Below are positions 32,257 through 56,320 of a stretch of 64,000 nucleotides of DNA, one piece after another. Location: assembly GCA_035509435.1 (NCBI GenBank), contig DATJLR010000002.1, forward strand, positions 133,774 to 197,773. The letters run 5' to 3'. Position numbers and translations under genes: made by a program. This DNA comes from Minisyncoccota bacterium. GTDB lineage: Bacteria; Patescibacteriota; Minisyncoccia; UBA6257; 2-01-FULL-56-20. Below the pieces are notes generated by a model, which saw only the letters and a program-made list of their open reading frames with translations, was not told the origin of the DNA and did no database searches. Numbering within the stretch: the stretch's first letter is position 1; each line of letters starts with the position of its first letter.

Positions 32257-33213
32257 ATGTTTGAAGAAATTATCAGTGCTGAAAATTTGTTGGCCGCGTG
32301 GGAGGAATTTATTACGGGCAAACGCGCAAAGCGCGATGTGCAGGAATTCCAGCTGCACCTTATGGATAACATTCTAGCGCTTCGCGACGATTTGCGGAAT
32401 GGCGCCTATCGCCACGGCGAATATCAGGCATTCAACATCTCCGACCCCAAACCGCGGAATATCCATAAAGCGACCGTGCGCGACCGCCTGCTCCATCATG
32501 CGATCTACCGCGTGCTCTATCCGTTCTTTGACCGCACGTTCATCGCGGATTCGTTCTCGTGCCGCGTCGGGAAGGGAACCCATGCGGCGATGGACCGGTT
32601 CCGGGCGTTCGGTTATGTCGCAAGCAGGAACAACACGCGCACGTGTTGGGCGCTCAAATGCGACATCAGGAAATTTTTCGCGAATATTGATCATGAAGTA
32701 TTGCTGAAAATCTTCGCGCGGCGGATCGGCGATGAACAACTGCTTTCGTTGTTGCGCGAGATCGTCGAGAGCTTTTCCTCTGTGCGCCCTGGCGTCGGCT
32801 TGCCGCTTGGCAATCTTACTTCACAGTTATTCGTGAACGTCTATATGAACGAGTTTGACCAATTTGCCAAACACGCGCTTCGTGTAAAATATTACATTCG
32901 TTATGCCGATGATTTTGTCATTTTATCTTCCAACCGTGATTGGCTTGGGATCATTTTGCCGGAAATAGATTATTTTTTGCAGGATCGGCTGAAATTGCAG
33001 CTCCATCCCGACAAGGTCTTCATCAAGACGCTTGCCTCCGGCATTGACTTCCTGGGGTGGGTGCATTTTCCTGATCATCGCGTTCTGCGCACCGCCACAA
33101 AGCGCCGAATGTCCAGGCGCGTGAGCAAAGATCCTTCTCTGCCGGTCGTCAATGCTTACAAAGGGATGCTGTCACACGGGAATGCCCATAAGCAAACATT
33201 AAAACTTCCTTAA
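32257..33213 (+). CDS. DGR reverse transcriptase
   Basis: RT motifs: SFSCRVGKGTHAA, ALKCDIRKFFANIDH, LPLGNLTSQLFVNVYMNEFD, IRYADDFVI (YxDD); 318 aa, typical DGR RT size. Confidence 0.9.
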   Translation: MFEEIISAENLLAAWEEFITGKRAKRDVQEFQLHLMDNILALRDDLRNGAYRHGEYQAFNISDPKPRNIHKATVRDRLLHHAIYRVLYPFFDRTFIADSFSCRVGKGTHAAMDRFRAFGYVASRNNTRTCWALKCDIRKFFANIDHEVLLKIFARRIGDEQLLSLLREIVESFSSVRPGVGLPLGNLTSQLFVNVYMNEFDQFAKHALRVKYYIRYADDFVILSSNRDWLGIILPEIDYFLQDRLKLQLHPDKVFIKTLASGIDFLGWVHFPDHRVLRTATKRRMSRRVSKDPSLPVVNAYKGMLSHGNAHKQTLKLP

Positions 33214-33243
33214 AAAGTTTTTGACTTCGTTTTTGCCAAAGCT

Positions 33244-33633
33244 ATGATTGTCGGTATGATAAAAAAGAAAAAGATGACCATAGAAGACCTGGCGGTAAAG
33301 ATCGATGACGTCCAAACGAAGATGGGCGGGTTGGCAACGCATGTCGATGAAAAAATAGACGAGTCCGTTGGTAATTTGGCCATCATGGTCCAGAAAGGAT
33401 TTGCCGAAACGGCAAAACAGGAAGATCTGCTCGCGCTCACCGATCGGGTTAAGTTGATAGAAGAGCGCCTCGATGGGCACGATAAAGAATTCAGAGGCAT
33501 GCATCAGAATTTCGATATGATCTTCCAAGAACTGAAAGCGATCCGCCAAGAAATGAAGGAAGCCGATACCCGCGCCGACGTCGTCGACCTGCAGCTTCGC
33601 GTTGCGAAACTCGAAAAGAAGATCCGTCCATAG
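33244..33633 (+). CDS. small coiled-coil protein (paralog of 54268..54585)
   Basis: 129 aa, charged heptad pattern; shares the N-terminus MI(V/G)(G/V)M and C-terminus L.LRV.KLE with the gene inserted in the atp operon. Confidence 0.5.
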   Translation: MIVGMIKKKKMTIEDLAVKIDDVQTKMGGLATHVDEKIDESVGNLAIMVQKGFAETAKQEDLLALTDRVKLIEERLDGHDKEFRGMHQNFDMIFQELKAIRQEMKEADTRADVVDLQLRVAKLEKKIRP

Positions 33634-38432: not shown

Positions 38433-38450
38433 TCATACCAACCACGCGCC

Positions 38451-39995
38451 ATGAGCATATCCATAGATCCAAAGAAAGGGGTGCGGCTGAAGACGGTGCG
38501 CAGGCACAGCTTTGGAGTAGCGGCCGTGATCATCGCGCTTGAAGCGGTATTTTCGCTGCTCCTCTATATGTCCCTTGCCGAACGCGTTTTCGTGGTGAAT
38601 CCGGTTTCTGCAACGGCTGGCGTTCCCGAGCTTGTGTCATACCAGGGAATGCTGACCGACACGTCGGGGAATCCCCTGGGAGGCGCGGGTTCCGTGTATT
38701 GTTTCCGCTACTCCATCTGGGATGCTGCGACGAGCGGGAACCAGCTGTGGCCGAGCGGCACGCCGGGCAATTCAACGACGACCGTGATCGACGGCGTGTT
38801 CAGCGACGAGATCGGCCGCGTGGACAGTCTTTCGCCGCTCGACTTTGAATCCACCTCCACGTATTACTTGCAGGTGCAGGTGAGCACGTCGTCTCTTACC
38901 TGCGCGACGGGGCTCGAGACGCTCTCGCCGCGCCAGCAGATCACGAGCGACGCCTGGTCGCAGACCGCGCAGGGCGTGTACGGGTCGCAGCTCCGCACGT
39001 TCAGCTCGAACAACACCGTGCAGATCGGCACCGGCGGCGGCGTGGCGTCCGGCAGCCAGACGCTCCTTTCGCTCGACGTCGTGAACACCGGCGAGTCGAT
39101 CGGCGGCTCGTGCACCACGAACGGCACGCTCTGGTACGATTCGAACCTCAAGCGCGCGCTCGTCTGCGAACAGAACCTCATCGTCCCGATCTCCGAAAGC
39201 GAGACGCTCATAGGGAACGGCATTACGGGCACGAGTACCATCGTAAATCCGGTATGGGCCGCGGATTCGAACATCACTTTCAGCACGAACGGCAACACGA
39301 TCAGCATCGAAGGTGCCGGCGGTGCAGGCGGCACGTTGCCGACGTTTCTTACCTATAACAACCGGCAGCTTGGAGCGTCGTCCGCGTTTGCGATCGTCAA
39401 CAATAGTGTGTGGGTAACGCCATTCAGGGTAAACGGGGGAAATGTTTCCGCAAGCACGCTCCTCATGATGGAATCATTTGCCACGAACGCCTCTTTGACG
39501 AGCAGCAATACCTCGACGTGGGGACAGACGCTCCGGTGGGGAATGTATTCGAATCCTGACAGCAATTCGACGGAAATGGACCTCTATGCTACGGGAAGTG
39601 TCCTGTTGCAGATATCGCATAGCAGTAACACTTCTTATATCGTCAACTATAATGGAGCGACGACAGGAAGCGCAAACTCCGGCCTTATCAACTCGTATGT
39701 GAGCGGAGTGAGGATGGTGACATTCCCATATGGATCGTCAATAACTCCGGGTCTTTATGCATTCGGTTATGTTGTCAGTACGGCAGGTTCCGCAATCATG
39801 GGAAGTGCGGCGCCGGTATTCGATAATCCCCTCAACGCTACTGTAGGGTATCTGCCGGGTGTTGCGACGGCATCCGCCGGTTATGGGGATGCGGGCACCA
39901 TCGGCACGTCCACTTCCATGCCCGCAACATTCGCGCTTACGAATGTGGGTCAGGTGAGCAACCGCGTGCCATATGTTAAGATGGGAGACCTGTAA
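38451..39995 (+). CDS. membrane-anchored Ser/Thr/Asn/Gly-rich surface protein
   Basis: N-terminal TM (FGVAAVIIALEAVFSLLLY), 514 aa of low-complexity beta-rich sequence. Confidence 0.5.
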   Translation: MSISIDPKKGVRLKTVRRHSFGVAAVIIALEAVFSLLLYMSLAERVFVVNPVSATAGVPELVSYQGMLTDTSGNPLGGAGSVYCFRYSIWDAATSGNQLWPSGTPGNSTTTVIDGVFSDEIGRVDSLSPLDFESTSTYYLQVQVSTSSLTCATGLETLSPRQQITSDAWSQTAQGVYGSQLRTFSSNNTVQIGTGGGVASGSQTLLSLDVVNTGESIGGSCTTNGTLWYDSNLKRALVCEQNLIVPISESETLIGNGITGTSTIVNPVWAADSNITFSTNGNTISIEGAGGAGGTLPTFLTYNNRQLGASSAFAIVNNSVWVTPFRVNGGNVSASTLLMMESFATNASLTSSNTSTWGQTLRWGMYSNPDSNSTEMDLYATGSVLLQISHSSNTSYIVNYNGATTGSANSGLINSYVSGVRMVTFPYGSSITPGLYAFGYVVSTAGSAIMGSAAPVFDNPLNATVGYLPGVATASAGYGDAGTIGTSTSMPATFALTNVGQVSNRVPYVKMGDL

Positions 39996-39998
39996 CCA

Positions 39999-40733
39999 AT
40001 GGACAGGCCAACGCCCCAAATAGTCATACCAAGTTACGAAGGCTCCAACAATGCGAACCTCGACGCGTCCGTCGCGCGCCTCGAAACTTCAAAGTCGTAT
40101 CGCGACCTTTCTACGGTCATCATCTGCCCCACGCGCGGCGCGGTCGCCGCGAAAGTGGTGCAGAGCTGGATGAGCCTCATGAAACCGATGAACCAAAAAG
40201 TGCTCGGGCCGCTCTTCGCGATCGGTATGGAAGTAGGGGAGGCATACGACGAGATGATAAACGTCATCCTTGCGAACCCCGTGCTCTCCACATGGAAATA
40301 TATTCTGACGATCGAGGAGGACAATATGCCTCCACCGGACGGCTTGCTCAAGTTGTACGAGGACATGGACGAGTACGACGTCGTCGGCGGCTTGTATTGG
40401 ACAAAAGGCGAAGGCGGCCAGCCGATGATCTACGGCGACCCGAACGGCGAGCCGAACAATTTCATTCCTCAAGTTCCGGTGAAGGATGGCCTGCAGCGGG
40501 CGAACGGCCTTGGGATGGGATTCAATCTTTTCAAAATGGAGATATTCAAGGACGAGCGGATTCCCCGGCCATGGTTCAAGACGTTGCAGGAATTCGACTC
40601 CCAAAAAGGCGGCGCGGCGGCCACGCAAGACCTCTATTTCTATCGGAATGCCGGTCCGCTCGGCTATAAATTCGCCTGTGACACGCGCGTGAAGGTCGGC
40701 CACTATGATGCAGCGATGGATATTGTGTGGTAG
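39999..40733 (+). CDS. putative glycosyltransferase (GT-A-like)
   Basis: VIICPTRG start, acidic EEDN motif, C-terminal YFYRNAG..CDTRVKVGH; assignment tentative. Confidence 0.35.
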   Translation: MDRPTPQIVIPSYEGSNNANLDASVARLETSKSYRDLSTVIICPTRGAVAAKVVQSWMSLMKPMNQKVLGPLFAIGMEVGEAYDEMINVILANPVLSTWKYILTIEEDNMPPPDGLLKLYEDMDEYDVVGGLYWTKGEGGQPMIYGDPNGEPNNFIPQVPVKDGLQRANGLGMGFNLFKMEIFKDERIPRPWFKTLQEFDSQKGGAAATQDLYFYRNAGPLGYKFACDTRVKVGHYDAAMDIVW

Positions 40734-40763
40734 GGCGATATAAAGGATATAATAGATGAAACT

Positions 40764-41273
40764 ATGAAGCTCGACATCGCATGCGGCCAGCGCAAACAAA
40801 AAGGGTTCAAGGGCGTGGACATCGTTCCGGGGCCGGACGTCGATTTCGTGTGGGATTTGGAAAAATATCCGTGGGAGCCGTTCAAGGACCATTCCGTGAA
40901 CGAGGTGTACATCGCGCACTATGCGGAACACACGAATGACCTTATAAAATTCATGGATGAGGTGTGGCGCATCTGCGAGAACGATGCGAAGGTGACGATC
41001 GTGGCGCCCTACTACACGTCGCTTACGGCGTGGGCGGACCCGACGCACAAGCGCGTGCTCACGGAGATGACGTGGGCGTATTTCAGCAAAGGGTGGCGGG
41101 AACGGGAGAAGCTGGACCATTACCCGACGAAGTGCGACTTTGCCGTCGGCAATCCGGTCGTGTTCTTCAATTCGCCGTGGGACAAAAAGTCCGAGGAGGC
41201 GCGGCAATTCGCCCAGCGGCACTATTGGAATGTCATTTCGGAAATGGTCGTCGAGCTGAAGGCGATCAAATGA
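40764..41273 (+). CDS. class I SAM-dependent methyltransferase
   Basis: Motif I LDIACGQRKQKGFKGVD and small MTase fold length. Confidence 0.6.
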   Translation: MKLDIACGQRKQKGFKGVDIVPGPDVDFVWDLEKYPWEPFKDHSVNEVYIAHYAEHTNDLIKFMDEVWRICENDAKVTIVAPYYTSLTAWADPTHKRVLTEMTWAYFSKGWREREKLDHYPTKCDFAVGNPVVFFNSPWDKKSEEARQFAQRHYWNVISEMVVELKAIK

Positions 41274-41286
41274 TGGCGGCGCGACG

Positions 41287-41814
41287 ATGAAGCTTCCGAA
41301 GGAATTCCGCAAACGGGAATATCGCGTGCTCGCGCTCGCCATAGCATTTTTTGCGCTTGGATCGTTCTTTTTCTTCGCGGATCGGTCGTATGTGCCGCAA
41401 GAAAAAACAGCGGCGGGAACCGCTGCTGAAGTCGTTGCCCCTTCCGCAGATGGCGCCCCCATAAGCCCCGCCGAGGGATCCGCATCGCTCAATCCTCAGT
41501 TCTCGGATTACCCGGCTCCCTCCCGATTCCGCACGTTCGCGTTCGCCAACGGAAAGATCGATGACGGCGTGTCGCTTACGGTGACCTCCACCTGCGCCGA
41601 TGCGTACGTGGCGGTGCTTGTATTTCCCGCCTCGGTGGATTACCGGGCGGATATCGATCGCGAGATTTATGACAGCGCCTTTCCGTGCGTTACCACCGGC
41701 GATGTCGCGAGCACGACCATCATTGCGGGCGACCTTGGGAACGCCCCTTCCGGCACATATTATTATTTTACCGCCGATCAGGGGGCGAGCGGCGTATGGT
41801 ATAATCCAAAATAA
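41287..41814 (+). CDS. hypothetical membrane-anchored protein
   Basis: N-terminal TM; 2 Cys pairs. Confidence 0.45.
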   Translation: MKLPKEFRKREYRVLALAIAFFALGSFFFFADRSYVPQEKTAAGTAAEVVAPSADGAPISPAEGSASLNPQFSDYPAPSRFRTFAFANGKIDDGVSLTVTSTCADAYVAVLVFPASVDYRADIDREIYDSAFPCVTTGDVASTTIIAGDLGNAPSGTYYYFTADQGASGVWYNPK

Positions 41815-41816
41815 GC

Positions 41817-42245
41817 ATGGCAATACATGAAGAGGGCGGCTCACGGTGGGGGATCGTTCTCGCGGTCGTCGTCGCGTTGATCGTGGCCGTTCTCATTTTT
41901 TTTGAATTTGATGACGCCTTATCGTGGATGGCGTTCAATGATCCGTTCCAGACGAACTGGGCCGCTGTTCAGCTTGTGGATGGCGAAATGCTGTATGGCC
42001 ATCTCGCGGGCGTATCAGGATCCGTGCTCGGCCTTAAGGATGTGTATCTTCTTGATAAAGTAACGGAGCAGGAAGCCCCACAGGCTTCTTCCACCGACTT
42101 TACTCTGGGCGGAACACCGACGCCGCAAGCGGGACAGGCGCTTGTTCCCGTGAGCTATACCGGCCAGCTGTTCATCGAACGCTCGGCGGTGCTCTACTTC
42201 AAGTTCGTCGCCCCCGGCGATCCCGCGCTCCAATACCTGCGATAG
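41817..42245 (+). CDS. hypothetical membrane-anchored protein
   Basis: N-terminal TM; abuts the previous gene. Confidence 0.45.
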   Translation: MAIHEEGGSRWGIVLAVVVALIVAVLIFFEFDDALSWMAFNDPFQTNWAAVQLVDGEMLYGHLAGVSGSVLGLKDVYLLDKVTEQEAPQASSTDFTLGGTPTPQAGQALVPVSYTGQLFIERSAVLYFKFVAPGDPALQYLR

Positions 42246-42269
42246 GGTAATATAAAACCTATTTTTACC

Positions 42270-44315
42270 ATGAGATCCCGCGTGACGTGTCGCTCCGCCT
42301 TTGGGTGGGGCATTATCGTGGTCGCCACTCTTGTCGGGTCCATTTTATTCGTTCCAAGGGCCTCGGCAGCCGTAACATTCGTCCAGGCGGCAACATCTAC
42401 CGGGAACGCGAATGCGGTATCCAGCACTTTCTCTTCCGCTGTGACGGCGGGAGATACGCTCGTCGTGTTCGCGCAGTGGGGCGATAATACATCGACCCCT
42501 CCCGCGATCTCAAGCATCACCGATACGCGGGGGAATCATTTTGTCGTCGTGACGAGCACGAAGGCCATGCAGATCAGCCCTCCGGATTATTTAACGAGGG
42601 ATATCGCAGAAGAGCTGGCATACGCGACGGGAACTACCGGTGGCGCGGATACCGTGACGATCACCTATGCCGATCCCTCGACAGGCATCGGTTATATGTC
42701 TGTTATTGAAATTACGGCGAGCGTCCTTGACCTCACCTCCGAAGCGACAGGCACCTCGGCAGCGCCGTCCGCGGGAACCGTCACCACCCTGCAGAACGGC
42801 GAGTTCGGCGCGGCGAACTTTTTTCAGGATGACGGCGTCGGTAATCCAAGCAGCATCGGGCCGGGCACGGGATGGACGATGTTTCAGCAGACCGGCGGGG
42901 GGGCGGCGGATGAAGGAGGCGAGTACTGGGCGCAATCCACAGCGGGCGCCCTTACGGGCAATTTTACTTCATCAAATTCGGCACGATGGGCGGCGGGCAT
43001 GGCGGTGTTCGTGCCGCCGGGTTTGTCATCGGCGCCCTGCGATACGTTGCTCACGGATTTCTGCTCAACGGATTTTTTCGTCCGGGGACAGGTGGGAAGC
43101 GTGTTGGGGAATTCCAATTCCACCGATTTCAGTGTGCGATATAGCGCGCAGGTGCTGGCGCTGCCGTTGATGACGTCGGCTGATTTCGAGATAACCTCGG
43201 GCGTCCTTGTGCCGGTATTCAAAGCGGTAAAGCCCGCCTATACTGTTGCCCACTACCAATGGCGTAACGACAACGGCAGCGAGACCGGCGCGACGTCGGC
43301 TACCGGCGGCATTGAGGATTCCGCGCTTACGGGGCTTCAGCAGAGTACCAGCATCCGGCTGCGCATGGAGGTCACGAACTCCGGTGGCACGATCTTTTCC
43401 TATTCGCCGCAATCGTTGCAGCTGCAATATGGCACATTGAGCACGACATGCTCTGCCATATCGTCATGGACGGTGGTGGGCGCCGCTGGCTCAGTGTGGA
43501 GCATGTACAACTCCACGAACCTCACGAATGGCGCGAACACCACGAACATCGCCACTTCGACCGGTGGCGTCGCGGACGCGAACCATACTTTCATCGTTGC
43601 CAACGCCGGAGTGAGGACCACGACAAGCACGGTGGGCGCGATAGCGATCCCGAGCGATTCGTTCATCGAGACCGAATTTGACATTGAAGCGCTCACCAGC
43701 TCGACGCCGAACGGCACCTATTGTTTCCGCCTCACGAATGCCGGCTCTGCGACCAATTTCGTATATTCAAATTATCCGCAGGCTACCGTCGCCTCGGCGC
43801 AATCGATCACGCTTACCCTCAATACTTCCACCGTCACGCTTTCCGGCCTTGCTCCTGGAATCGCGGTGAGCGCGACGACGACGGCAACAGTGAATGTGAG
43901 CGGGGCCACTGACGGATATACCCTTGAGATACAGCGCAACTCTGCGACGTCCACTCTTGCATCGTCCAGCATCACATTCCCGGATTTCGTTTCGTGGAAA
44001 CCCACCAGCACTGTCTGCGCCCCGGGAATAGGAAATGCGGCCACCGCTACCGGCAATACGTTTTCGTTCCGCGTCGCTTCGTCGGGGACCACGGCGAGCT
44101 ATTGCACATTCTGGTGGGGTTCGAACGATTCGGCCGGCACGGCGATGTATGCCGGCATTCCGAGCACCACGCAACCTATCGTGTATTCCACATCGTCCGC
44201 CTCGCAGAACGGTACGACAACGATCTCCATCATCTATAGCGCCAATGCGCCATTAAGCCAGAAGGCGACAGGCTACACGGGAGGGGTTACGATCACCGCA
44301 CTCGCAAACCCGTGA
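42270..44315 (+). CDS. large secreted surface protein with C-terminal WxL-like domain
   Basis: Signal peptide, S/T/A-rich body; the last about 170 aa share a domain with the next gene (QRNSATST..ITFPD ... ANAP..Q.AT.YTG..TITA.A.P). Confidence 0.5.
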   Translation: MRSRVTCRSAFGWGIIVVATLVGSILFVPRASAAVTFVQAATSTGNANAVSSTFSSAVTAGDTLVVFAQWGDNTSTPPAISSITDTRGNHFVVVTSTKAMQISPPDYLTRDIAEELAYATGTTGGADTVTITYADPSTGIGYMSVIEITASVLDLTSEATGTSAAPSAGTVTTLQNGEFGAANFFQDDGVGNPSSIGPGTGWTMFQQTGGGAADEGGEYWAQSTAGALTGNFTSSNSARWAAGMAVFVPPGLSSAPCDTLLTDFCSTDFFVRGQVGSVLGNSNSTDFSVRYSAQVLALPLMTSADFEITSGVLVPVFKAVKPAYTVAHYQWRNDNGSETGATSATGGIEDSALTGLQQSTSIRLRMEVTNSGGTIFSYSPQSLQLQYGTLSTTCSAISSWTVVGAAGSVWSMYNSTNLTNGANTTNIATSTGGVADANHTFIVANAGVRTTTSTVGAIAIPSDSFIETEFDIEALTSSTPNGTYCFRLTNAGSATNFVYSNYPQATVASAQSITLTLNTSTVTLSGLAPGIAVSATTTATVNVSGATDGYTLEIQRNSATSTLASSSITFPDFVSWKPTSTVCAPGIGNAATATGNTFSFRVASSGTTASYCTFWWGSNDSAGTAMYAGIPSTTQPIVYSTSSASQNGTTTISIIYSANAPLSQKATGYTGGVTITALANP

Positions 44316-44390
44316 TCGATGAGGGAGGTCTGAAAGTTATCCACAGAACGGAACTTTTAAATAAAAGCAGTTGTGATATGATGAATTCAA

Positions 44391-45056
44391 ATGAAACATT
44401 TTTTGAGTGGAGCGTTCGGTAGAGCAGCCTCGCTTTTGATTGTATCAACCGTTATCGTTTTGGTTATGGGATTCGGAGTGGAAAACGGCGGTGGTATCCG
44501 ACAAGCTCAGGCTTCCACCTCGACATCGACCACGCAGACCATCAATGTGACAGTCAACCAGGTCATCACGCTTTCGCTTTCTGGAGCAAACCTTAACCTT
44601 CCAACGCTCACGCCGGGAACCGCTGTCATCGCGACATCAAGCGCCACGGTCACCACAAATGCCGTTTCGGGCTGGCAGCTCCAGGTCAATAGGAACAGCG
44701 CCACTTCCACGATAGCGTCGGGAACCATAACATTCCCCGACCAGACGGCGTTCACCGGCAATAACGCGACCTCGGCGGCCAATCTGGCAAACAGCGGCGC
44801 AAATCTTAGCTTCCGCGAATATCAAACCGGCACATCCGCAGGCGATTACAGTTCCGCAACGTGGGGCACTGCCGATACTGACCCGAGCGCATTTTATGCC
44901 GGCTTCCCGACATCAGCGGTAACGTATGCAAGCACGAGCACCTACACGGGTACCGCTCAGACGGTTGTCATGGAGGTTCGGGCGAACGCTCCAGCGACCC
45001 AACAGGCGACAACTTATACCGGAGCGATCACTATTACCGCCGTTGCGCTGCCATAA
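44391..45056 (+). CDS. secreted WxL-like domain protein
   Basis: 221 aa; SGWQLQVNRNSATSTIASGTITFPD ... TYTGAITITAVALP; resembles WxL cell-surface domains (tentative). Confidence 0.45.
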   Translation: MKHFLSGAFGRAASLLIVSTVIVLVMGFGVENGGGIRQAQASTSTSTTQTINVTVNQVITLSLSGANLNLPTLTPGTAVIATSSATVTTNAVSGWQLQVNRNSATSTIASGTITFPDQTAFTGNNATSAANLANSGANLSFREYQTGTSAGDYSSATWGTADTDPSAFYAGFPTSAVTYASTSTYTGTAQTVVMEVRANAPATQQATTYTGAITITAVALP

Positions 45057-45084
45057 GGGCGCCGTCGGTGTTTAAATTGAAAGT

Positions 45085-45993
45085 ATGAAAAAGAACATCG
45101 CCGTCATTTCGTTGGCCTCTCTTGCGGTTTTAGGCGCCGCTTTTTTGTTCCCTTCAACGAGCCACGCGCAGGTGGGCATTTCTCTTTTTCCGATAAAATT
45201 TGACGTTACCGTTGCGCCAGGGCAAACCTATTCTGACACTGTTACCGTCATCAATCCAAACGATTTCCCGATCGGCGTCCAGCCCGAGGTAGAGAATATT
45301 GCGGGCGGCAACCAGGGATCCATTGATCTTACCGATACGGACATCCCACATGGGCTTTCAGCATGGATCTCGCTCAACATGAGCGAGTTCACGCTTGCGC
45401 CGCAGGAGCAGCTTCAGGTGCCGTTCACAATAACCGTTCCGGCGAACGGAGAGCCGGGCGGCCATTATGGTGCGATCCTTTTCCGCGGTCTTTCCGCTAC
45501 ATCCACCGCGAGTTCGAGCGGTGTCGGCATATCCGGCCGCGTGGGAACGGTAATTCTTCTTAATGTCCCGGGAGATTCTTATGCAACGGGCGATATTGCG
45601 AGCTTCGCCGGGCCTGCCTCGTACGTTTCCCATGGCCCGTTCAACTTCTCTTTTACCGTCAATAATACCGGCAATACCCATTTCACTCCGCAGGGGCAGA
45701 TCACGTTGAGCGGTCCGCTTTTTGGAAGCACGGCTATTCCGTTCACGCCAGGCATTGTCTTTCCGGGTTATGACCGAACCTTTACCGCAAGCTGGCCTGG
45801 CCGTTATGCGTTCGGGCCCATGACCGCTACGCTGTCACTTACCATACCCGATGATACGAGCACGATAACCCAGACGATAACATTCTTTGCCTTCCCGTGG
45901 CAGGAAACGCTCGTTATAGTGGTCGTACTTATTGTTCTCTATATCATTTTCAGGACCTGGAGGAAGAACTTCAAAATAGTGAGGGTAAAGTGA
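45085..45993 (+). CDS. DUF916/DUF3324-like cell-surface protein with C-terminal TM anchor
   Basis: Signal peptide, ISLFPIKFDVTVAPGQTYSD start typical of the DUF916 Ig-like domain, C-terminal TM plus RTWRK stop-transfer. Confidence 0.45.
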   Translation: MKKNIAVISLASLAVLGAAFLFPSTSHAQVGISLFPIKFDVTVAPGQTYSDTVTVINPNDFPIGVQPEVENIAGGNQGSIDLTDTDIPHGLSAWISLNMSEFTLAPQEQLQVPFTITVPANGEPGGHYGAILFRGLSATSTASSSGVGISGRVGTVILLNVPGDSYATGDIASFAGPASYVSHGPFNFSFTVNNTGNTHFTPQGQITLSGPLFGSTAIPFTPGIVFPGYDRTFTASWPGRYAFGPMTATLSLTIPDDTSTITQTITFFAFPWQETLVIVVVLIVLYIIFRTWRKNFKIVRVK

Positions 45994-46005
45994 TACCCTG
46001 AGAAG

Positions 46006-47223
46006 GTGAGAAGACCTTTTCTGTATGTAATAGTGTTCGCGATCGCGGCGTCGGCACTTATCGCGAACGCCCAAAGCACGGGAAGCCCCCTGCAACTCAA
46101 TGTTACTGTCGTATATCCGCCGGGTATCCCATCTGGTCTTACGGCAACGACGACCTCGGCTTCTCAGATAGACCTTTCGTGGAACGCGAGCGGGACGAAC
46201 GAGACCGGATTTGAAATAGAAGAAGCGCAAGGGAATGATTCAGTATTTACTCCGATAGACGTGGTCAGTTCAAGCGTCACATCATATTCCCGGACGGGTC
46301 TCTTGCCGAGCACGACCTATTTTTATCGTGTTGCGGCGTATAACGAGGGAGGGTCGAGCGCATTTTCTAATGAGGCGTCGTCAACGACGCAGGCGGCATT
46401 GAACAATGGCGGCGGAATAAACAGCGGTGGCGGCGGCGGCGGAGGCGGCGGTGGTGGCGGTGGTGGTGGCGGATCGACATATGTGCCGCCGATATTTCAA
46501 ACCTCTGCTGATTTTCGCGGCATGGCGTATCCGCTGAGTACCATCACGCTCCTCGAGAACGGCCAGGTAGTTGCGACGACACAAGCGGGGCCGGATGCCC
46601 GTTTTGAGATCGACGTTTCGAACATGGCTCCGGGATCGTATAATTTCGGCGTATGGGCGGAGGATCCGCAGGGAGGCCGGTCGATCACGCAGACATTTTC
46701 TGTAAGCCTTACCGATGGCGCGACGACCATCGTGAGCGGCATATTCTTCTCGCCCACCATCAGCGCGGACAAGCGGCAGGTCAAGCGCGGCGACGTACTG
46801 ACCCTTCTTGGATATGGCCCTCCGGCGACGACGATCACCGTGGTCATCAATTCCGCGAATGAGATATTGCAGCAGGTCACTTCGACCGACAGTGGAGAGT
46901 GGACCTATGCGTTGAATACTGAAGAGTTGGAGTATGGCGATCACACGGCTCACGCGTGGGCCGTGGCGGGCGGAAGCGTGACGCCGGATTCGGACACCCT
47001 CTCGTTCACGGTCGGGACAAGTACGGTCGCCGCACCGGCGTTGTCGCCGTCAACTCATAAAATAGGAGATCTGAACGGCGACGAACGCGTCAACCTTGTT
47101 GATTTTTCCATTCTCGCCTATTGGTACGGCAAACCGAATCCTCCGGCGGCGTATCTTTTGGACGGAAAGCCGTCGGTCGACCTCGCGGACTTCAGCATCC
47201 TAGCTTATTATTGGACCGGCTGA
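46006..47223 (+). CDS. secreted FN3-domain protein with poly-Gly linker and C-terminal dockerin-like repeats
   Basis: FN3 segment (PSGLTATT..QIDLSWNASG..YFYRVAAYNEGG), G16 linker, two dockerin-type repeats GDLNGDERVNLVDFSILAYWYG / LDGKPSVDLADFSILAYYWTG. Confidence 0.6.
   Translation: MRRPFLYVIVFAIAASALIANAQSTGSPLQLNVTVVYPPGIPSGLTATTTSASQIDLSWNASGTNETGFEIEEAQGNDSVFTPIDVVSSSVTSYSRTGLLPSTTYFYRVAAYNEGGSSAFSNEASSTTQAALNNGGGINSGGGGGGGGGGGGGGGGSTYVPPIFQTSADFRGMAYPLSTITLLENGQVVATTQAGPDARFEIDVSNMAPGSYNFGVWAEDPQGGRSITQTFSVSLTDGATTIVSGIFFSPTISADKRQVKRGDVLTLLGYGPPATTITVVINSANEILQQVTSTDSGEWTYALNTEELEYGDHTAHAWAVAGGSVTPDSDTLSFTVGTSTVAAPALSPSTHKIGDLNGDERVNLVDFSILAYWYGKPNPPAAYLLDGKPSVDLADFSILAYYWTG
46426..46473 (+). 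repeat. (GGN)16 trinucleotide tract encoding Gly16
   Basis: ggtggcggcggcggcggaggcggcggtggtggcggtggtggtggcgga. Confidence 0.9.
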
Positions 47224-47224
47224 C

Positions 47225-48112
47225 ATGAAAAAAATACTTCCCATATTTTTCACTGTCGCCGCGCTGATCGTTCCGTGGCGCTCCTTTGCCGCCGTCATTA
47301 CCGTCGGGCCCTCGGGAGCCGATCCGCAAACGGTCGCGATCACGCTCGATACGCAAGGCGAGGAGGTGAACGCGGTGGAAATTCACTTTTCATTTGATAC
47401 AGACCTATTTTCCGTGAAGGGCATAAGTACCGGCGGTTCGGTCATCAACCTGTGGGTGAACGGCCCGTCGTTCTCGAACACGTTGGGTACGGTAGATCTC
47501 GCGGGCATCATTCCGGGTGGCGAGGTGACCGCGAGCGGCACCATTGTGACGATCACCCTGGTGCCAAAATTGCCGCAGGTACGGACCAATTTTACTTTCG
47601 ATTCAGGCCAAGTGCTTTTGAACGACGGGAAAGGGACCCCCGCAGCGCTTTCCGTTGTCATCAATCCGTTCACGCTGGGCGGCGCGGGCAGCGCTCCGCC
47701 GGCAGAGAGCACAAAGGCGCCGAACGCGTTCGCGCCCGAGATCGGGCAGGATCCGGACATTTTCGGCGGCAGCTATTTCCTTGTATTTTCGACGACCGAT
47801 CAGCAATCGGGCATCGACCATTACGACGTCCTGGAGGTTCCCGCAGGAACGAAAGTGACGAGCTCTTCGCCGTGGGTGACCGCTGCCTCTCCGTATCTTT
47901 TGAAGGATCAGGAACTTTCGAGCGATATCTACGTGCGCGCGGTCGACGCGGCGGGGAACTTCCGGACCGAAAAAATTTCAGCCGCACATCCGCGTCCGGG
48001 GATATCCGCTACCCTCTCTATCCTTGAAGCGATCCTCGGGGCGATAGTGGTATTATTGATAGGAGCGGGGATCGTGCGGCGTATCCGTCAATGGAAAAAA
48101 CGAAAGCGATAA
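47225..48112 (+). CDS. cohesin-domain protein with C-terminal TM anchor
   Basis: Signal peptide; cohesin-like beta-sandwich (HFSFDTDLFSVKGISTGGSVINLW..GTVDLAGI..ASGTIVTITLVPK); C-terminal TM plus RRIRQWKKRKR. Confidence 0.55.
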   Translation: MKKILPIFFTVAALIVPWRSFAAVITVGPSGADPQTVAITLDTQGEEVNAVEIHFSFDTDLFSVKGISTGGSVINLWVNGPSFSNTLGTVDLAGIIPGGEVTASGTIVTITLVPKLPQVRTNFTFDSGQVLLNDGKGTPAALSVVINPFTLGGAGSAPPAESTKAPNAFAPEIGQDPDIFGGSYFLVFSTTDQQSGIDHYDVLEVPAGTKVTSSSPWVTAASPYLLKDQELSSDIYVRAVDAAGNFRTEKISAAHPRPGISATLSILEAILGAIVVLLIGAGIVRRIRQWKKRKR

Positions 48113-49548
48113 GGAGGCTCTCGCTGATCTTCGGCACGGCCACCATGCTTGCCGTGGTTTTCGGCGCACATGCCGCGCGCGCGGCGACGCTTTCTTTCTC
48201 GCCGCAGGCGGGAACCTATTTTTCCGGAAGAAGCTTCAGTGTTTCGGTCATTGTTTCTTCGCCCGACCAGGCGATGAACGCCGTGCAGGCGGAGGTCTCT
48301 TTCCCTCCCGACGAACTCCAGGTGCTTTCCGTGTCTGAGGCGGGCTCGATCATCGATCTTTGGGTGCAGAACCCGACGTTTTCAAACGAAGATGGCACGA
48401 TAAATTTCGGAGGAGTGGCGGTAAATCCTGGCTATCAGGGATCCGGGGGGAAAATCGTGACGATCCAGTTCGAGGCAAAGAACCCCGGCACGGCAGCGCT
48501 TTCATTCCTTTCGGGATCTGTTCTTGCGAATGACGGAAAGGGGACCAATATTCTTGCGTCAATGGGCCGCGCGAGCTTCATCGTTGCGCCCCTTTCGACC
48601 GCTCCTGCATCGACGAATCCCGGGACTGCCGGAAGCACGGGGCCGGGCGTTGTCATCATCAATTCCGATCCTGCGCTTGCGAGCGGCCAATGGTATAACA
48701 TTAATAAGATCACATTCAGCTGGAGCGCCCCTACGAACGCCGAAGGCGTTGACTACGCGATATCCCCGAATCCGAACCTTCAACTTCCCGATGTGGGCCA
48801 AGGGTTGGTTTCTCAAGCGTCCTATGACCTTTCTAACTTTGCGGATGGCCCGTGGTATTTTTATGTGAGCTTCAATAACGGGAGCGCGTGGTCGCCCCCT
48901 TCCGTAAAGGAATTTCTTCTTGACCGCACCCCGCCCGATCCGTTCATTATTTCGCGCGAAGGCGCGGATCAGCCGGATTCCCGGCCGGTATTTCAATGGG
49001 TCGCGAGTGACGCTGCTTCGGGGATCGATCATTACGAGGTGAAGATCGGCGATGGCGACTGGTTCGATGCGTCCACCATACAAGCGGGAAGTTCCACATA
49101 TGTGCTTCCGCTGCAGTCGCCCGCTTCCGCGCGGACGCTCACGGTGCGCGCGTTCGACAAGGCGGGCAACCATACCGACGCGACGGTCGATTTTTCGGTG
49201 CCCGGTGTGCCCTGCAATGGTGGCGCGTTCTTCTGCCGGCTTCCGGTGTTCTTTTCTCAATGGGGATGGGTGATCGTCGGTATCCTTGTTATTCTGCTCA
49301 TTCTTGCCTACGGCTTTATTTACCATCTTCTTCGGTGGAAAAAGATCTCGGCGAAAGAGTTGAAAAAATTCGAAGACGAGCTCCGCCACGATCTCGGTGT
49401 CATCCATGAAGAAGCCGAAAAAGCGCGGTCCGGTGCCGTTGATCTGAGGCCATCCCATCTTGCACGCGAAAAGCGTGAGCTTGAGAAAGAGGTCGAGCAT
49501 ATTTCCGAGGATGTGAAGAAGGAAATCAGGGATCTGGGCGGGAAATAG
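48091..49548 (+). CDS. cohesin-domain protein with TM anchor and cytoplasmic coiled-coil tail
   Basis: Second cohesin-like module (VSFPPDELQVLSVSEAGSIIDLWVQNP..GGKIVTIQFEAKNPG), shared SGIDHYEV domain, TM, charged coiled-coil C-terminus. Confidence 0.55.
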   Translation: MEKTKAIRRLSLIFGTATMLAVVFGAHAARAATLSFSPQAGTYFSGRSFSVSVIVSSPDQAMNAVQAEVSFPPDELQVLSVSEAGSIIDLWVQNPTFSNEDGTINFGGVAVNPGYQGSGGKIVTIQFEAKNPGTAALSFLSGSVLANDGKGTNILASMGRASFIVAPLSTAPASTNPGTAGSTGPGVVIINSDPALASGQWYNINKITFSWSAPTNAEGVDYAISPNPNLQLPDVGQGLVSQASYDLSNFADGPWYFYVSFNNGSAWSPPSVKEFLLDRTPPDPFIISREGADQPDSRPVFQWVASDAASGIDHYEVKIGDGDWFDASTIQAGSSTYVLPLQSPASARTLTVRAFDKAGNHTDATVDFSVPGVPCNGGAFFCRLPVFFSQWGWVIVGILVILLILAYGFIYHLLRWKKISAKELKKFEDELRHDLGVIHEEAEKARSGAVDLRPSHLAREKRELEKEVEHISEDVKKEIRDLGGK

Positions 49549-49592
49549 TGTCATCGTTGGAAGCGTGACTCTGCCGCCTTTTTCTGCTATAA

Positions 49593-50348
49593 TTGCCCAG
49601 TATGCTGAACATTTCGCTCGCCGCTGAACCCATCTTTTATATCGGCTCATGGCCGGTGACGAACGCCGTGCTTCAGGCGTTCGTGGTGCTGGTGGCGCTC
49701 ACCATCATCGCCGTTCTCCTTAAAAAGAAGCTTGCGATGGTGCCCGGTATGTTGCAGAACATCGCCGAGATGGTCATTGAGGGCGCGCTCGGACTCATGG
49801 ACTCTGTGCTTGGGAGCCGGAAGGAATCGGAAAAATATCTGCCGCTCACCTTCACTATCTTTATCTTTATCCTGATCTCCAACTGGTCGGGACTGATCCC
49901 CGGGGTCGGATCGGTGACGCTCGGCCGCGGCGCGGACGCGATCCCGCTTTTGCGCTCGCCCGCGAGCGACCTCAACTTCACGCTTGCCCTCGCGCTCATC
50001 GCCGTCACCATGGTGAACGTCTTCGCGACATCCATCGTGGGATTGCGCGAGCGCGTGTCGGTATTCTTCAATTTCTCGAGCCCGATCAAGTTTTTCGTGG
50101 GCATACTTGAGCTTATCTCGGAATTTGCTAGAATTATCTCGTTCACGTTCCGTCTTTTCGGCAATGTGTTCGCGGGGGAGGTCCTGCTCGCCATCATGGC
50201 GCTCCTCGTGCCATACCTGGTGCCCCTGCCATTCATGTTCCTGGAAGTGTTCGTCGGATTCATTCAGGCGTTCATTTTCGGAATGCTCACACTCGTATTC
50301 GTGGCGCTCGCGATCACTCCTCACGAAGGCGAGGAGGCGGGCCATTGA
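49593..50348 (+). CDS. atpB: F0F1 ATP synthase subunit a
   Basis: 5-TM; RLFGNVFAGEVL motif with the essential Arg. Confidence 0.9.
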   Translation: MPSMLNISLAAEPIFYIGSWPVTNAVLQAFVVLVALTIIAVLLKKKLAMVPGMLQNIAEMVIEGALGLMDSVLGSRKESEKYLPLTFTIFIFILISNWSGLIPGVGSVTLGRGADAIPLLRSPASDLNFTLALALIAVTMVNVFATSIVGLRERVSVFFNFSSPIKFFVGILELISEFARIISFTFRLFGNVFAGEVLLAIMALLVPYLVPLPFMFLEVFVGFIQAFIFGMLTLVFVALAITPHEGEEAGH

Positions 50349-50652: not shown

Positions 50653-51171
50653 ATGCAGCAACTCGTACAACAGCTCGGCGTCAATTGGGAGCTCCTGCTC
50701 AGTCAGGCGTTCAATTTTGCGCTGCTGCTTGTCGTGCTGCGCATTTTCGTCTACAAGCCGCTCTTGAAGCTGCTGCATGACCGGCGCGAGCGCATCGAGG
50801 GCGGCCTGGCGAAAGCCGAAGAGGCCGAGCGCCGGCTCCACGAGGTTGATGAGATCGGAAAGGGAAGGATCAAAGAGGCGGAGACGGAAGCGGTGCATAT
50901 TTTAAAACGCACCGAAGCCGAGGCGAAGTCGCTCGAAGAAAAGCTGCTTGCCCAGGCAAAACGCCACGAGGAAGAGGCGGTGGCAGCCACCGCCACGCGA
51001 TTGCGGTCGCAGGAAGAGGAATCGCGCCGGGCGCTCGATAAAGAGGCGGCGGCGCTTGTGCGTCTCGCCATGGTGAAGACGGTCGAGCTCTCGCCGGAAG
51101 CGGTCGACGATGCGTTGATCGCAAAAGCGGTCGCCGAAGCCAAGAAGTCGGTAAGCGCATCAACCGCATGA
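50653..51171 (+). CDS. atpF: F0F1 ATP synthase subunit b
   Basis: N-terminal TM then a long charged helix. Confidence 0.8.
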   Translation: MQQLVQQLGVNWELLLSQAFNFALLLVVLRIFVYKPLLKLLHDRRERIEGGLAKAEEAERRLHEVDEIGKGRIKEAETEAVHILKRTEAEAKSLEEKLLAQAKRHEEEAVAATATRLRSQEEESRRALDKEAAALVRLAMVKTVELSPEAVDDALIAKAVAEAKKSVSASTA

Positions 51172-51560
51172 AATACCCTCCGCACATTTACGCGAAGGCG
51201 CTCGTAGAGGTCCTGTCCGCGCCTGCCGGGCCGCACAAGCGGTCCGACGACGAGGTGGCAAAGAATTTTCTCGCGCTCGTGCGGAAGAACGGCGACGAAC
51301 GGCACTTGCGGAAGATATTGGAAGAGGCGTCGCGGTTCGCGCGCGGCAAGAGCGGCGTGCGGAAGGTGACGATCGAGTCGGCGCGTCCGCTCGCGCCGGC
51401 ACAGCGAAGATCGGTTGCGCACTTCACCAAGCCGGGGGATGTCGTGGAGGAGCGGGTCGACCCCGACCTCATCGCGGGGATCCGCATCATCCTGAACGAC
51501 GAGATGCAGTTCGACGGATCGCTGAAAACCAAACTGAACCGGGCGTTGGGGAACGCGTAA
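51168..51560 (+). CDS. atpH: F0F1 ATP synthase subunit delta (short OSCP)
   Basis: Position between b and alpha; YAKALVEV..; only 130 aa. Confidence 0.65.
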   Translation: MKYPPHIYAKALVEVLSAPAGPHKRSDDEVAKNFLALVRKNGDERHLRKILEEASRFARGKSGVRKVTIESARPLAPAQRRSVAHFTKPGDVVEERVDPDLIAGIRIILNDEMQFDGSLKTKLNRALGNA

Positions 51561-53133: not shown

Positions 53134-54069
53134 ATGGAGTCCGGACAGAGCTTAAAGCGGCGCATGAAGAGCGTCCAGAATATCGGACAGATCACGAAGG
53201 CGATGGAGCTTGTCTCTGCCACCAAGATGCGGCGCTCGCAGGAGCTTGCGCTCCATTCGCGCCCGTACGCGTACACTGCGTTGCGGTTGCTTGGCATCCT
53301 GTCGTCGCTCAAGGACGTTCCGACGCCGGTGCTCTTTGAAAAGCGCGAGGTGCAACGCACCGCGTTTCTCTTAATGATGTCCGATCGCGGCCTTGCGGGT
53401 TCCTTCAACGGCGCCGTCGTCCGCGAGTTCGAGCGATACATGAAAGCGAACAAGATCGATATCCTGGATCCGCGCTACTCTTTTATTGCCATTGGGCAGA
53501 AGGCCAAAAGTTACTTTGAGCGACGCCGCGCGCGCGTCATCGCTTCGTTCACGCGCGTGAGCGATGCGAGCAGCATTCTCGACGCCGAGCCGATAGCGGA
53601 TTTTTTGATCGAGGGCTACGCGCGCCATGACTTTGACGGTGTCATCGCGTTCTTCACGACGTTCGTCACTGCGCTCCGCCAGGATCCGGTCGTCCGCGAG
53701 CTCCTTCCGGTGAGCTTCGAGGCGATCAGGCAGTCGGTGGAAGAGACGATCCCGCGCGCCGGCCGCTACGCGGACTACGCAAAGTCGGAAGCCTTCATGG
53801 ACGGGCGCGAGAAAGAATACATTATCGAGCCGTCGCCAAAAGAGGTGCTGGACGAGCTCGCGCCGAAACTTCTGAAGATCCGCCTGTATCACGCCATCCT
53901 CGAAGCCAATGCCTCCGAGCACTCGGCGCGTCGCGTGGCGATGAAGAACGCATCCGACAACGCGTCGGAACTTTCGGAAACGCTCACGATGGTCTATAAT
54001 AAGTCGCGTCAGGCCGCCATCACGGCGCAGATCATCGAGATCACGAGCGGGGCAGAGTCGCTGCAGTAG
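53134..54069 (+). CDS. atpG: F0F1 ATP synthase subunit gamma
   Basis: MESGQSLKRRMKSVQNIGQITKAMELVSATKMRR N-terminus, conserved C-terminal helix. Confidence 0.85.
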   Translation: MESGQSLKRRMKSVQNIGQITKAMELVSATKMRRSQELALHSRPYAYTALRLLGILSSLKDVPTPVLFEKREVQRTAFLLMMSDRGLAGSFNGAVVREFERYMKANKIDILDPRYSFIAIGQKAKSYFERRRARVIASFTRVSDASSILDAEPIADFLIEGYARHDFDGVIAFFTTFVTALRQDPVVRELLPVSFEAIRQSVEETIPRAGRYADYAKSEAFMDGREKEYIIEPSPKEVLDELAPKLLKIRLYHAILEANASEHSARRVAMKNASDNASELSETLTMVYNKSRQAAITAQIIEITSGAESLQ

Positions 54070-54197
54070 CAAAATCATTTTGGATTATCTTTTCGGGGAC
54101 GGGTCGCGTTCTGCTGAACGCGCCCTAACGCTCGGCACCCCCGTGCCTCCGCGATTCCCCTCAAAGACAACCCAAAGTGATTTTGCTACTGCAGCGA
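54058..54197. repeat. 20-bp perfect inverted repeat (TCGCTGCAGTAGCAAAATCA) flanking a 100-bp spacer, overlapping the atpG stop codon
   Basis: Arms at 54058-54077 and 54178-54197; the spacer contains a nested GCGTTC..GAACGC hairpin. Confidence 0.75.
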
Positions 54198-54267
54198 TAT
54201 GCGTTGGAAGTGGTGTAAAACATTAAATTTTGATGAAAAATTATTTGCAATGCTATAATCAAGCTCT

Positions 54268-54585
54268 ATGATTGGGGTCATGGAAGATAAAAAAATATTT
54301 GAACAGTTAGCGTACAAGATCGCCAGGGAAGTGGCTGCGGAAAAAGATCGGCGCCACGGGGTTATTCTGGAGGATATCCAGGGAAAATTTGCCGCTTTGG
54401 TTGAGGGTCAGAATGCAATGGAGAAGAGAATGGACGGATTTGATGGGAGATTAGGAAAGATTGAAGTAAAAATGGAGAAAATGGATGATACCCTTGATGA
54501 GATCAGAGAGGATATACGGGATAAAGCCGATAAAAAAGATGTGGCCACGCTGGAGCGGCGGGTTACCAAGCTTGAACACCTCTAA
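54268..54585 (+). CDS. small coiled-coil protein inserted between atpG and atpD (paralog of 33244..33633)
   Basis: 105 aa; same N- and C-terminal signatures as the paralog; TATAAT at 54253-54258. Confidence 0.5.
   Translation: MIGVMEDKKIFEQLAYKIAREVAAEKDRRHGVILEDIQGKFAALVEGQNAMEKRMDGFDGRLGKIEVKMEKMDDTLDEIREDIRDKADKKDVATLERRVTKLEHL

Positions 54586-56320
<1,735 letters not shown>

Follow-up and report, generated by a model that had tools for sequence, protein, structure and literature searches.

Genes and features at the atp locus

The stretch of DNA analysed here (the window) comprises 64 kb of a 439-kb contig from a metagenome-assembled genome (MAG) of Candidatus Paceibacterota, very small bacteria of the candidate phyla radiation (CPR). 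It carries an F1Fo ATP synthase operon in which atpG and atpD, encoding the F1 gamma and beta subunits, are separated by a large branched hairpin, a promoter block and a small gene for a predicted coiled-coil protein. The features of this junction are the following.

53134..54069, plus strand: atpG, F1 gamma subunit, 311 aa (Pfam PF00231, E = 4e-83)
54052..54202, strand not assigned: Y-shaped hairpin element (folding; covariance model match of 168 bits)
54058..54077, plus strand: hairpin 5' arm, perfect over 20 nt, holding the atpG codons TCG CTG CAG and the stop TAG (repeat search)
54178..54197, plus strand: hairpin 3' arm, perfect over 20 nt, the reverse complement of 54058-54077 (repeat search)
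54101..54125: tip hairpin 1, with the loop motif CTRCTG invariant in all copies (folding and alignment)
54129..54153: tip hairpin 2 (folding and alignment)
54214..54285, plus strand: conserved promoter block (conservation, nhmmer E = 6e-18, promoter scan)
54280..54585, plus strand: small predicted coiled-coil gene, 101 aa from its second ATG (ATG2, 54280) or 105 aa from the ATG at 54268 (homologs, synteny, purifying selection, AlphaFold2 (AF2), profile matches)
54588..54617, plus strand: promoter-like TTTGCA-18-(TG)CTACAAT, ending 10 nt 5' of the atpD ATG and kept in relative L036
54628..56055, plus strand: atpD, F1 beta subunit (open reading frame (ORF) list; Pfam families in relatives)
56072..56320, plus strand: atpC, epsilon subunit with the beta-sandwich domain only, 82 aa from the NCBI start or 91 aa from 56045 (PF02823 as sole match)

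Contigs of relatives were labelled L001-L038, and eleven related lineages were compared, with L038 as a more distant outgroup. All eleven lineages have the small gene, in full or as a remnant, directly 5' of atpD (protein identity 47-90%), and in relatives it is followed by atpD, a short atpC and a Pro_CA_2 gene. In ten of these lineages 35-60 nt separate the small gene from the atpD start; in the eleventh, that of L001, a 64-aa ORF stands between the two. This extra ORF (L001:4427-4621) also occurs in L002-L004, which with L001 are the nearest relatives (87% protein identity), and is missing from the window. In the outgroup, whose epsilon subunit is 66% identical, the atpG stop codon stands 4 nt from the atpD ATG, with neither hairpin nor small gene. 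This uninterrupted junction indicates that the module is an insertion gained by the sub-clade rather than a phylum-wide feature, and it bears out the initial annotation in treating the atpG-atpD junction as interrupted.

Substitutions in the small gene fall mainly at third codon positions (between the window and L001, 3, 2 and 20 differences by codon position). Nonsynonymous divergence (dN) is 0.03-0.19, and synonymous divergence (dS) ranges from 0.3 to saturation, with at least 0.6 in 20 of 21 pairs. By this pattern of purifying selection, the ORF at 54268-54585 is a real gene. The initial annotation had given it 105 codons; NCBI, whose entry VMA75_01755 (MAG TPA) is identical to the small protein, starts it at the second ATG, for 101 aa. 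The initial annotation had also suggested a mobile or selfish cassette, or else a regulator recruited more than once. Given the gene or its remnant at the same position in every lineage, and a hairpin that is mostly kept at the atpG stop codon and has diverged by compensatory substitution, the small gene is resident at this locus and is not a mobile or selfish cassette today.

Several relatives have an additional gene between atpG and the small gene, with no counterpart in the window genome. Its product has a conserved N-terminal membrane anchor, while the remainder is diverging fast. Carriers of this gene also show a short A/T-rich palindrome directly 5' of the promoter block (L001:3880-3913, L009:3852-3911 and L023:3380-3413, as minus-strand matches), which may be the terminator of the additional gene or part of a bidirectional promoter.

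A structurally constrained hairpin at the atpG stop codon

The perfect 20-bp inverted repeat over the atpG stop, as first described, is present: the 20-mer TCGCTGCAGTAGCAAAATCA lies at 54058-54077 on the plus strand and at 54178-54197 on the minus strand. The repeat is longer than originally claimed, with arms extending to 42 nt (54058-54099 and 54156-54197, 88% complementary) and weak pairing out to about 54052-54202. Within the 5' arm sits the atpG stop codon (TAG, 54067-54069), and the last three sense codons of atpG are also paired. Folded as RNA, the element has a minimum free energy of -91 kcal/mol, compared with -45.7 +/- 4.2 for shuffled sequences (z = -10.8). A long outer stem, with 27 continuous pairs and then two further short paired runs, leads through a short GGGGA/UCCCC helix to a three-way junction that bears the two GC-rich tip hairpins. 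The whole element is about 150 nt long, and its 3' flank is GAUAUGCGUUGG.

No third copy of TCGCTGCAGTAGCAAAATCA was found in the window at up to three mismatches (shuffles predict 0 copies), and an exact lookup in 185,579 species-representative genomes also returned none. Rfam 15 at the gathering threshold matched only six tRNAs in the whole window; in E-value mode, positions 54000-54290 gave two chance snoRNA matches (E = 4.6-8.2), both outside the hairpin. An 11-nt direct repeat between the hairpin 3' arm and the atpD promoter (GATTTTGCTAC / GAATTTGCTAC) is lineage-specific and was judged to be chance.

The hairpin is also found at the atpG stop codon in seven other lineages, with L001, L005, L009, L021, L023 and L036 among the contigs that show it, and in an eighth its 3' arm has decayed. 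Its stem sequences diverge among lineages yet remain complementary, and RNAalifold counts compensatory changes in 23 of 52 pairs. Across an alignment of eight copies, pairing holds in 94.1% of cells, and both partners have changed in 34 of 46 pairs; none of 500 shuffles reaches these values, and sliding the partners leaves 41-51% paired. Both tips covary, with compensatory changes in 5/7 pairs of helix 4 (tip hairpin 1) and 4/5 pairs of helix 5 (tip hairpin 2), as do the C-terminal codons of atpG with the 3' arm (in L021, the 5' side has GCGGCGGAATAG and the 3' side CTATTCCGCCG). The unpaired motifs TTTTCGGGKAC, CTRCTG and CCCCTCAA are invariant or nearly so, despite near-saturated synonymous sites, and in L036 the hairpin is intact though both downstream genes have decayed. 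This hairpin is thus under structural constraint, with covariation to support it, and is new with respect to Rfam.

Covariance models detect a single copy in the 64-kb window (the next-best match, with filters off, scores 14 bits); of the 14 kb scanned in each of L036 and L038, that of L036 has one copy and that of L038 has none. Two diverged copies occur at other sites in relatives. One (L021:266-416) lies at the atpA stop codon, faces a convergent gene and has a 3' arm complementing the native last codons TTCTTGCAGAAATAA; the other (L026:4360-4480) is inverted and lies between ftsE and a paralog of the small gene that is linked to it. Only the inner stem and core are homologous among the atpG, atpA and ftsE-linked copies, while the outer arms are locus-specific. 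These two further copies mean that the core has been duplicated at least twice. A search for the core pattern in viral contigs gave one chance match inside a phage terminase-like ORF, which has no hairpin and was discarded.

The initial annotation had named a picture that would speak against a cassette: relatives that all carry the gene without repeats, and no further copies of the repeat anywhere. What we find agrees in part, since the gene (or a remnant) is present in all eleven lineages and the exact repeat has no other copy in the window or in the species-representative genomes; it departs in that the hairpin is mostly present in these lineages and has diverged copies at two other sites.

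The promoter block and the start codon

The block at 54214-54285 begins with an A/T-rich stretch like an upstream promoter (UP) element (AAACATTAAATTTT..AAAAA), followed by TTGATG-18-TGCTATAAT (54230-54259) and an overlapping TTGCAA-16-TATGAT (54245-54272). The TATAAT box reported earlier is there, at 54254-54259, and is preceded by TG, forming an extended -10 element (TGCTATAAT, 54251-54259). Across relatives the 57-nt core of the block (54214-54270) is 85-93% identical, against about 78% for atpG.

The pattern AAACATTAAA-N40-ATGATTG occurs twice in the window, at the ORFs starting at 54268 and 33244, where 0 copies are expected. A profile search found a third copy of the block on the minus strand (11061-11006; ATTAAAATTTGATTAAAAAGTTTTTGACT-N16-TATGAT), which drives a GC-rich segment of about 80 nt ending in a canonical terminator. 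Because this third copy drives an unrelated short transcript, we rejected the idea that the shared 5' block proves a joint duplication of promoter and gene. The block is better seen as the strong-promoter consensus of the organism, and the case for paralogy between the two ORFs rests mainly on protein comparison. The segment itself (10935-11061, minus strand) lies just 5' of a tRNA (10795-10867); it matches nothing in Rfam and may be a small RNA or a tRNA leader. Another hairpin (11086-11201; 116 nt, 42-nt arms) lies about 25 nt from this third block and directly 5' of a 509-aa gene with an SLT_2 transglycosylase domain; its plus strand folds at -72.4 kcal/mol (z = -8.6) and its minus strand at -50.7.

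The consensus block consists of the UP-like stretch, TTGACT or TTGCAA, 16 nt and TATGAT, with ATG2 7 nt later. The same spacing recurs in the window: a TAnnnT hexamer ends 7 nt before the start codon at ATG2 of the small gene (54280), ATG2 of the paralog (33256), ftsE (33691) and ftsX (34375). NCBI begins both the small gene and the paralog at the second ATG. L026 retains the motif TATGCTTGTTGTATG even though its first ATG is not in frame with the ORF. The shared N-terminal signature that the initial annotation had read as protein ('MI(G/V)(V/G)M') is therefore a shared nucleotide block, AAACATTAAA-N40-ATGATTG, and is probably not translated; it would represent a TATGAT -10 box and a 7-nt spacer before a leaderless AUG. 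Use of the upstream extended -10 (TGCTATAAT) at the atp copy would instead give a 14-nt leader. Most atp genes in the window have no Shine-Dalgarno motif, and leaderless or Shine-Dalgarno-independent initiation may be common in this organism.

A distant paralog upstream of ftsE

The second copy of the promoter block precedes the second member of the small-gene family.

33192..33259, plus strand: second promoter block (UP-like stretch, TTGACT-16-TATGAT), 5' of the paralog (nhmmer E = 2.5e-15)
33256..33633, plus strand: distant paralog, 125 aa from ATG2 or 129 aa from 33244, directly 5' of ftsE (33691) and ftsX

By BLASTP, the product of the ORF at 33244-33633 and the small protein share 29% identity over 66 aa (E = 9e-6); a family-to-family comparison with hhalign yields a probability of 80% (E = 1.4e-5). 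On these protein comparisons, the ORF is a real but distant relative of the small protein, so the paralog first claimed does exist.

The initial annotation had also linked the paralog to a retroelement. A complete diversity-generating retroelement (DGR) does lie beside it in the window (30769-33213), between prfB and the ftsE-linked small gene, with a 196-aa target gene, a template repeat near 31700-31830, bAvd and a reverse transcriptase (RVT_1). The ORF at 33244 starts 30 nt past the reverse transcriptase gene, and the last codons of that gene overlap the UP-like stretch of the paralog's promoter. Orthologs of the 33244 gene, on the other hand, always precede ftsE-ftsX-CAP, whatever the state of the DGR: the reverse transcriptase gene is internally deleted in L026 (3703-3926) and truncated in L027 (258-906), both being decayed fragments, and L024 and L025 have no DGR, with prfB as the neighbour. 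With the DGR intact, decayed or absent while the paralog keeps its ftsE neighbour, the association is incidental. We also considered and rejected the ORF at 33244-33633 as an Avd-type DGR accessory, since bAvd (PF22296) is a separate gene (31867-32190, minus strand) and ftsE keeps the ORF where no intact reverse transcriptase remains.

Three further observations concern this region. Another large boundary hairpin lies between prfB and the DGR target gene (30695-30749; 25-bp arms, -28 kcal/mol, z = -7.7, no obvious T-run). A perfect 18-bp inverted repeat (34001-34018 and 34179-34196, 160 nt between arms) lies wholly inside the ftsE coding sequence. The distance from CAP to atpB is about 13 kb in the window (36257-49593), whereas ftsE-ftsX-CAP abut atpB in L024 and L026.

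Predicted structure of the small protein

The small protein opens with 40 highly conserved residues, continues with a central coiled coil of variable length and has KADKKD and then RVTKLE towards its C-terminus. Pfam, NCBIfam and PHROGs gave only sub-threshold, generic coiled-coil matches (FlaC, XhlA, DUF7310 and FliH). An exhaustive profile search returned 1960 clusters at E <= 1e-3, of which about a dozen match from end to end and the others match the coiled-coil part only. In the PDB, the profile scores best against coiled coils that form trimers, namely reovirus sigma1, beta-layer-containing GCN4 fusions and a fragment of a protein from Giovannonibacteria (CPR). AF2 models the monomer as three helices (predicted local distance difference test score, pLDDT, 74), with a helix break at A87-D88 within KADKKD. 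A Foldseek search of this model against the PDB gave nothing at E < 1, a long-helix model being little informative in such a search.

Beta-layers in heptad coiled coils follow the consensus [aliphatic]-A-T-K-[polar]-[DE] (Hartmann et al., 2016; PMC4786415). The window sequence K-A-D-K-K-D (residues 86-91) fits it at 4/6 positions, and orthologs of the paralog have an exact LATKAD or LATKTD. The trimerisation motif RhxxhE (PMC5940361) occurs in the window protein as RLGKIE and RVTKLE, and every homolog contains 1-6 instances. The small protein is accordingly predicted to be a cytoplasmic, parallel homotrimeric coiled coil with a beta-layer-like break, and belongs to a new, probably trimeric, coiled-coil family.

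The neighbouring F1 subunits are short. Epsilon (56045-56320) consists of the N-terminal beta-sandwich only, as do the 120 homolog clusters listed of 304 found, all of 80-104 aa with PF02823 only. Delta (51168-51560) has 130 aa and lacks about 65 N-terminal positions of the OSCP profile. Together, the short epsilon and short delta suggest a minimal F1 in this clade.

Possible roles of the hairpin and the small protein

In our reading, the F1Fo ATP synthase operon was interrupted long ago in one sub-clade of Candidatus Paceibacterota. The interruption, specific to that lineage, is now resident, and its hairpin would form a transcription-unit boundary followed by a separately promoted unit. We put the probability of this reading at about 0.5. 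The boundary role of the hairpin is inferred from where its copies lie: the 3' end of atpG before a promoter, the 3' end of atpA opposite a convergent gene (L021) and the gap between the paralog and the promoter of ftsE (L026). All three kinds of site are transcription-unit ends, which is why we prefer a boundary element. The position of the hairpin at 11086-11201 near the third promoter block was counted as support for the same role. At the atp locus, the hairpin would mark the end of an atpBEFHAG transcription unit: it would terminate or insulate in a non-canonical way and, as a duplex of RNase III type, resist exonucleases. A second unit (small gene, atpD and atpC) would be expressed from its own promoter, with a probably leaderless small-gene mRNA starting at the second AUG (54280). 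In order, the module comprises the hairpin, the additional gene for a membrane-anchored protein (in several relatives; lost in the window genome), the promoter, the small gene and atpD-atpC. The paralog at 33256-33633 is the equivalent first gene of the ftsEX unit. The small protein may have an accessory role with F1.

Several observations weigh against this reading. Transcription start sites, 3' ends and processing at the locus are all inferred. No U-tract follows the hairpin on its 3' side and the scan gives no terminator-like site on the plus strand there, although the window does have a canonical hairpin-plus-T-run terminator elsewhere (about 10922-10955). The hairpin is dispensable, being absent from the L013 lineage and having lost its 3' arm to decay in L019, and the L026 copy is inverted relative to its flanking genes. 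The small gene is dispensable too, as L036 and L037 have deleted the promoter and the N-terminal half of the gene, leaving the C-terminal half. Finally, the complementary strand folds 4-26 kcal/mol more stably than the element sense in 9/9 copies (in the window, -94.4 vs -87.0 kcal/mol), and outer-stem mismatches on the sense strand comprise 16 A.C against 4 G.U, beside 252 Watson-Crick pairs. Such strand asymmetry is unlike what is predicted for a structure selected on the atp mRNA.

The asymmetry suggests either that the complementary strand is constrained, whether as antisense RNA or as single-stranded DNA, or that a mutational bias is at work. In the first case, the functional hairpin would belong to an antisense RNA, or a protein would recognise it in single-stranded DNA. 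Its position at the atpG stop would then have to do with controlling or blocking antisense transcription, or with a DNA transaction, instead of with 3'-end formation of the atp mRNA. Besides the folding energies and the mismatch count, this would fit the second copy in L021, which lies 3' of a convergent minus-strand gene, and that in L026, where the stable strand carries the sense of the gene before it; by eye, a minus-strand TTGCAA-17-TTTAAT promoter-like site in the window can also be read pointing into the hairpin. The promoter scan does not call that site, nor any other minus-strand promoter, and in carriers of the additional gene any such promoter would be more than 1 kb off. The nine copies are moreover phylogenetically non-independent, mutational bias could yield the same asymmetry, and the count over all helices in the alignment is symmetric (11 G.U vs 14 A.C), so that we keep constraint on the complementary strand as a rival rather than a conclusion, and an unlikely one. 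We likewise doubt that the hairpin is a low-copy selfish palindromic repeat (of MITE (miniature inverted-repeat transposable element), REP (repetitive extragenic palindrome) or Correia type), duplicated to stop-proximal sites and persisting roughly neutrally, with its stem kept perfect and extended by template switching. Such a repeat would explain homologous cores at three different sites in both orientations. It would also explain why, at atpG and at atpA of L021, the 3' arm exactly complements the native last codons and stop, for which an inverted duplication at the DNA level is the easiest explanation. Intramolecular template switching in quasipalindromes would account both for a 3' arm that copies gene ends and for rare G.U intermediates, and pairs in the outer stem are nearly all Watson-Crick (252 against 4 sense G.U). 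The low copy number in the window, L036 and L038, the absence of the exact 20-mer from the species-representative genomes, and outer arms that differ between sites, with no conserved terminal repeats and no visible target-site duplication, speak against it. So does an element held in place, still pairing and keeping its unpaired motifs across near-saturated synonymous divergence.

A further possibility concerns the small protein, which could be a clade-specific accessory or regulatory F1 subunit, perhaps an inhibitor acting in trans in place of the missing epsilon C-terminal inhibitory helices, as zeta and IF1 do elsewhere. The short epsilon and delta make such a surrogate role tempting, and there is precedent: lineages with a non-inhibitory epsilon can have new small inhibitors (PMC9317440). 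The small gene also invariably adjoins atpD-atpC, and its N-terminal 40 residues are under very strong purifying selection. The short epsilon, however, extends well beyond the small gene (304 homolog clusters vs 11), and L038 has it with no small gene at the junction. The loss of the promoter and N-terminal half in L036 and L037 argues against an essential role, the paralog is placed likewise before ftsE, and the predicted trimer is unlike any known F1 regulator. Nor did Pfam, NCBIfam, PHROGs and the Foldseek search reveal significant similarity to subunits b, b' or delta, the epsilon C-terminal domain, zeta, IF1 or AtpI, in sequence or fold, and the PDB profile search returned generic coiled coils. 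A role as accessory or regulatory F1 subunit seems quite unlikely. Two more far-reaching readings are improbable as well. In one, the Y element would belong to an undescribed CPR class of structured elements that acts on the complementary strand, as antisense RNA or single-stranded DNA, and colonises gene 3' ends by copying the last codons and stop into its stem. In the other, the co-inserted leaderless trimeric coiled-coil protein would be a lineage-specific F1 ATPase regulator replacing a lost epsilon inhibitory C-terminal domain.

The locus matters for several reasons. The ATP synthase operon ranks with the best-conserved gene arrays of bacteria, and a stable, clade-wide interruption between gamma and beta shows rewiring in CPR, where gene regulation is almost unstudied; a literature search on CPR ATP synthase, leaderless mRNAs in Patescibacteria and coiled coils in Giovannonibacteria returned nothing relevant. 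The locus offers a covariation-backed RNA or DNA motif absent from Rfam, and a clear promoter consensus (UP-like, -35 and -10) with -10 boxes 7 nt from starts, which suggests widespread leaderless translation in the organism. In the small coiled-coil family, each of the two members heads a unit starting with a P-loop ATPase gene (atpD or ftsE). None of this overturns current knowledge, but it gives concrete handles in organisms that are hard to grow.

Comparison with known systems

Intercistronic and 3'-end stabilising hairpins, such as those of REP elements and bacterial interspersed mosaic elements (BIMEs) or E. coli malEFG, and long RNase III-type duplexes, such as the phage T7 processing sites, are among the closest known parallels. 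Like REP, BIME and stabilising hairpins, the Y element is very stable and noncoding, lies between cistrons at a transcription-unit end and is placed to decouple upstream from downstream expression. It differs in its conserved Y core with sequence-specific unpaired motifs, in a stem that swallows the upstream stop and last codons, in being single- or low-copy in the sequence scanned where REP and BIME number in the hundreds, and in that its stable strand appears to be antisense. With intrinsic (Rho-independent) terminators it shares a GC-rich hairpin at a gene 3' end, and terminators sometimes overlap the stop codon; unlike them it has no U-tract, is branched and, at 150 nt, is about five times larger.

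Correia elements of Neisseria are MITEs of about 100-150 bp with long inverted arms, co-transcribed and RNase III-cleavable, found in either orientation. Their size, arms and occurrence in either orientation match the Y element, which however has no conserved terminal inverted repeat, no visible target-site duplication, a very low copy number in the sequence scanned and one orthologous site with compensatory evolution. We rejected a MITE in general on similar grounds: the outer arms are locus-specific, no target-site duplication is visible at any of the three site types and the 20-mer is absent from the rest of the window and from the species-representative genomes. Integron attC sites are imperfect palindromes of 57-141 bp, sometimes branched, at ORF 3' ends and often over the stop, and their functional strand is the one complementary to the mRNA. 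The Y element is also a branched imperfect palindrome at an ORF 3' end over a stop codon. It has no core sites at its borders (TCGCTGCAGTAGC ... GCTACTGCAGCGATATGC, without the GTTRRRY of the R''/R' core sites RYYYAAC ... GTTRRRY) and no cassette array, and it follows a core housekeeping gene, so that attC was rejected as well.

For the small protein, the nearest structural parallel is with trimeric alpha/beta coiled coils containing beta-layers (PMC4786415; stalks of DUF3782/DUF1640 type), given its heptads broken by an A-[TD]-K-x-[DE] motif, its RhxxhE motifs and its best PDB matches. Unlike those stalks, it would be a free cytoplasmic protein of about 100 aa with its own conserved N-terminal helix and no membrane anchor, endonuclease or adhesin domain. 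Compared with F1 inhibitors (the epsilon C-terminal domain, alpha-proteobacterial zeta and mitochondrial IF1; PMC9317440), it has no detectable homology, is a predicted trimer where IF1 is an antiparallel dimer, is dispensable in at least one lineage and has an ftsEX-linked paralog. It nevertheless resembles them in being small, charged, helical and encoded with F1, and, like IF1 in particular, it combines a conserved N-terminal region with a C-terminal coiled coil.

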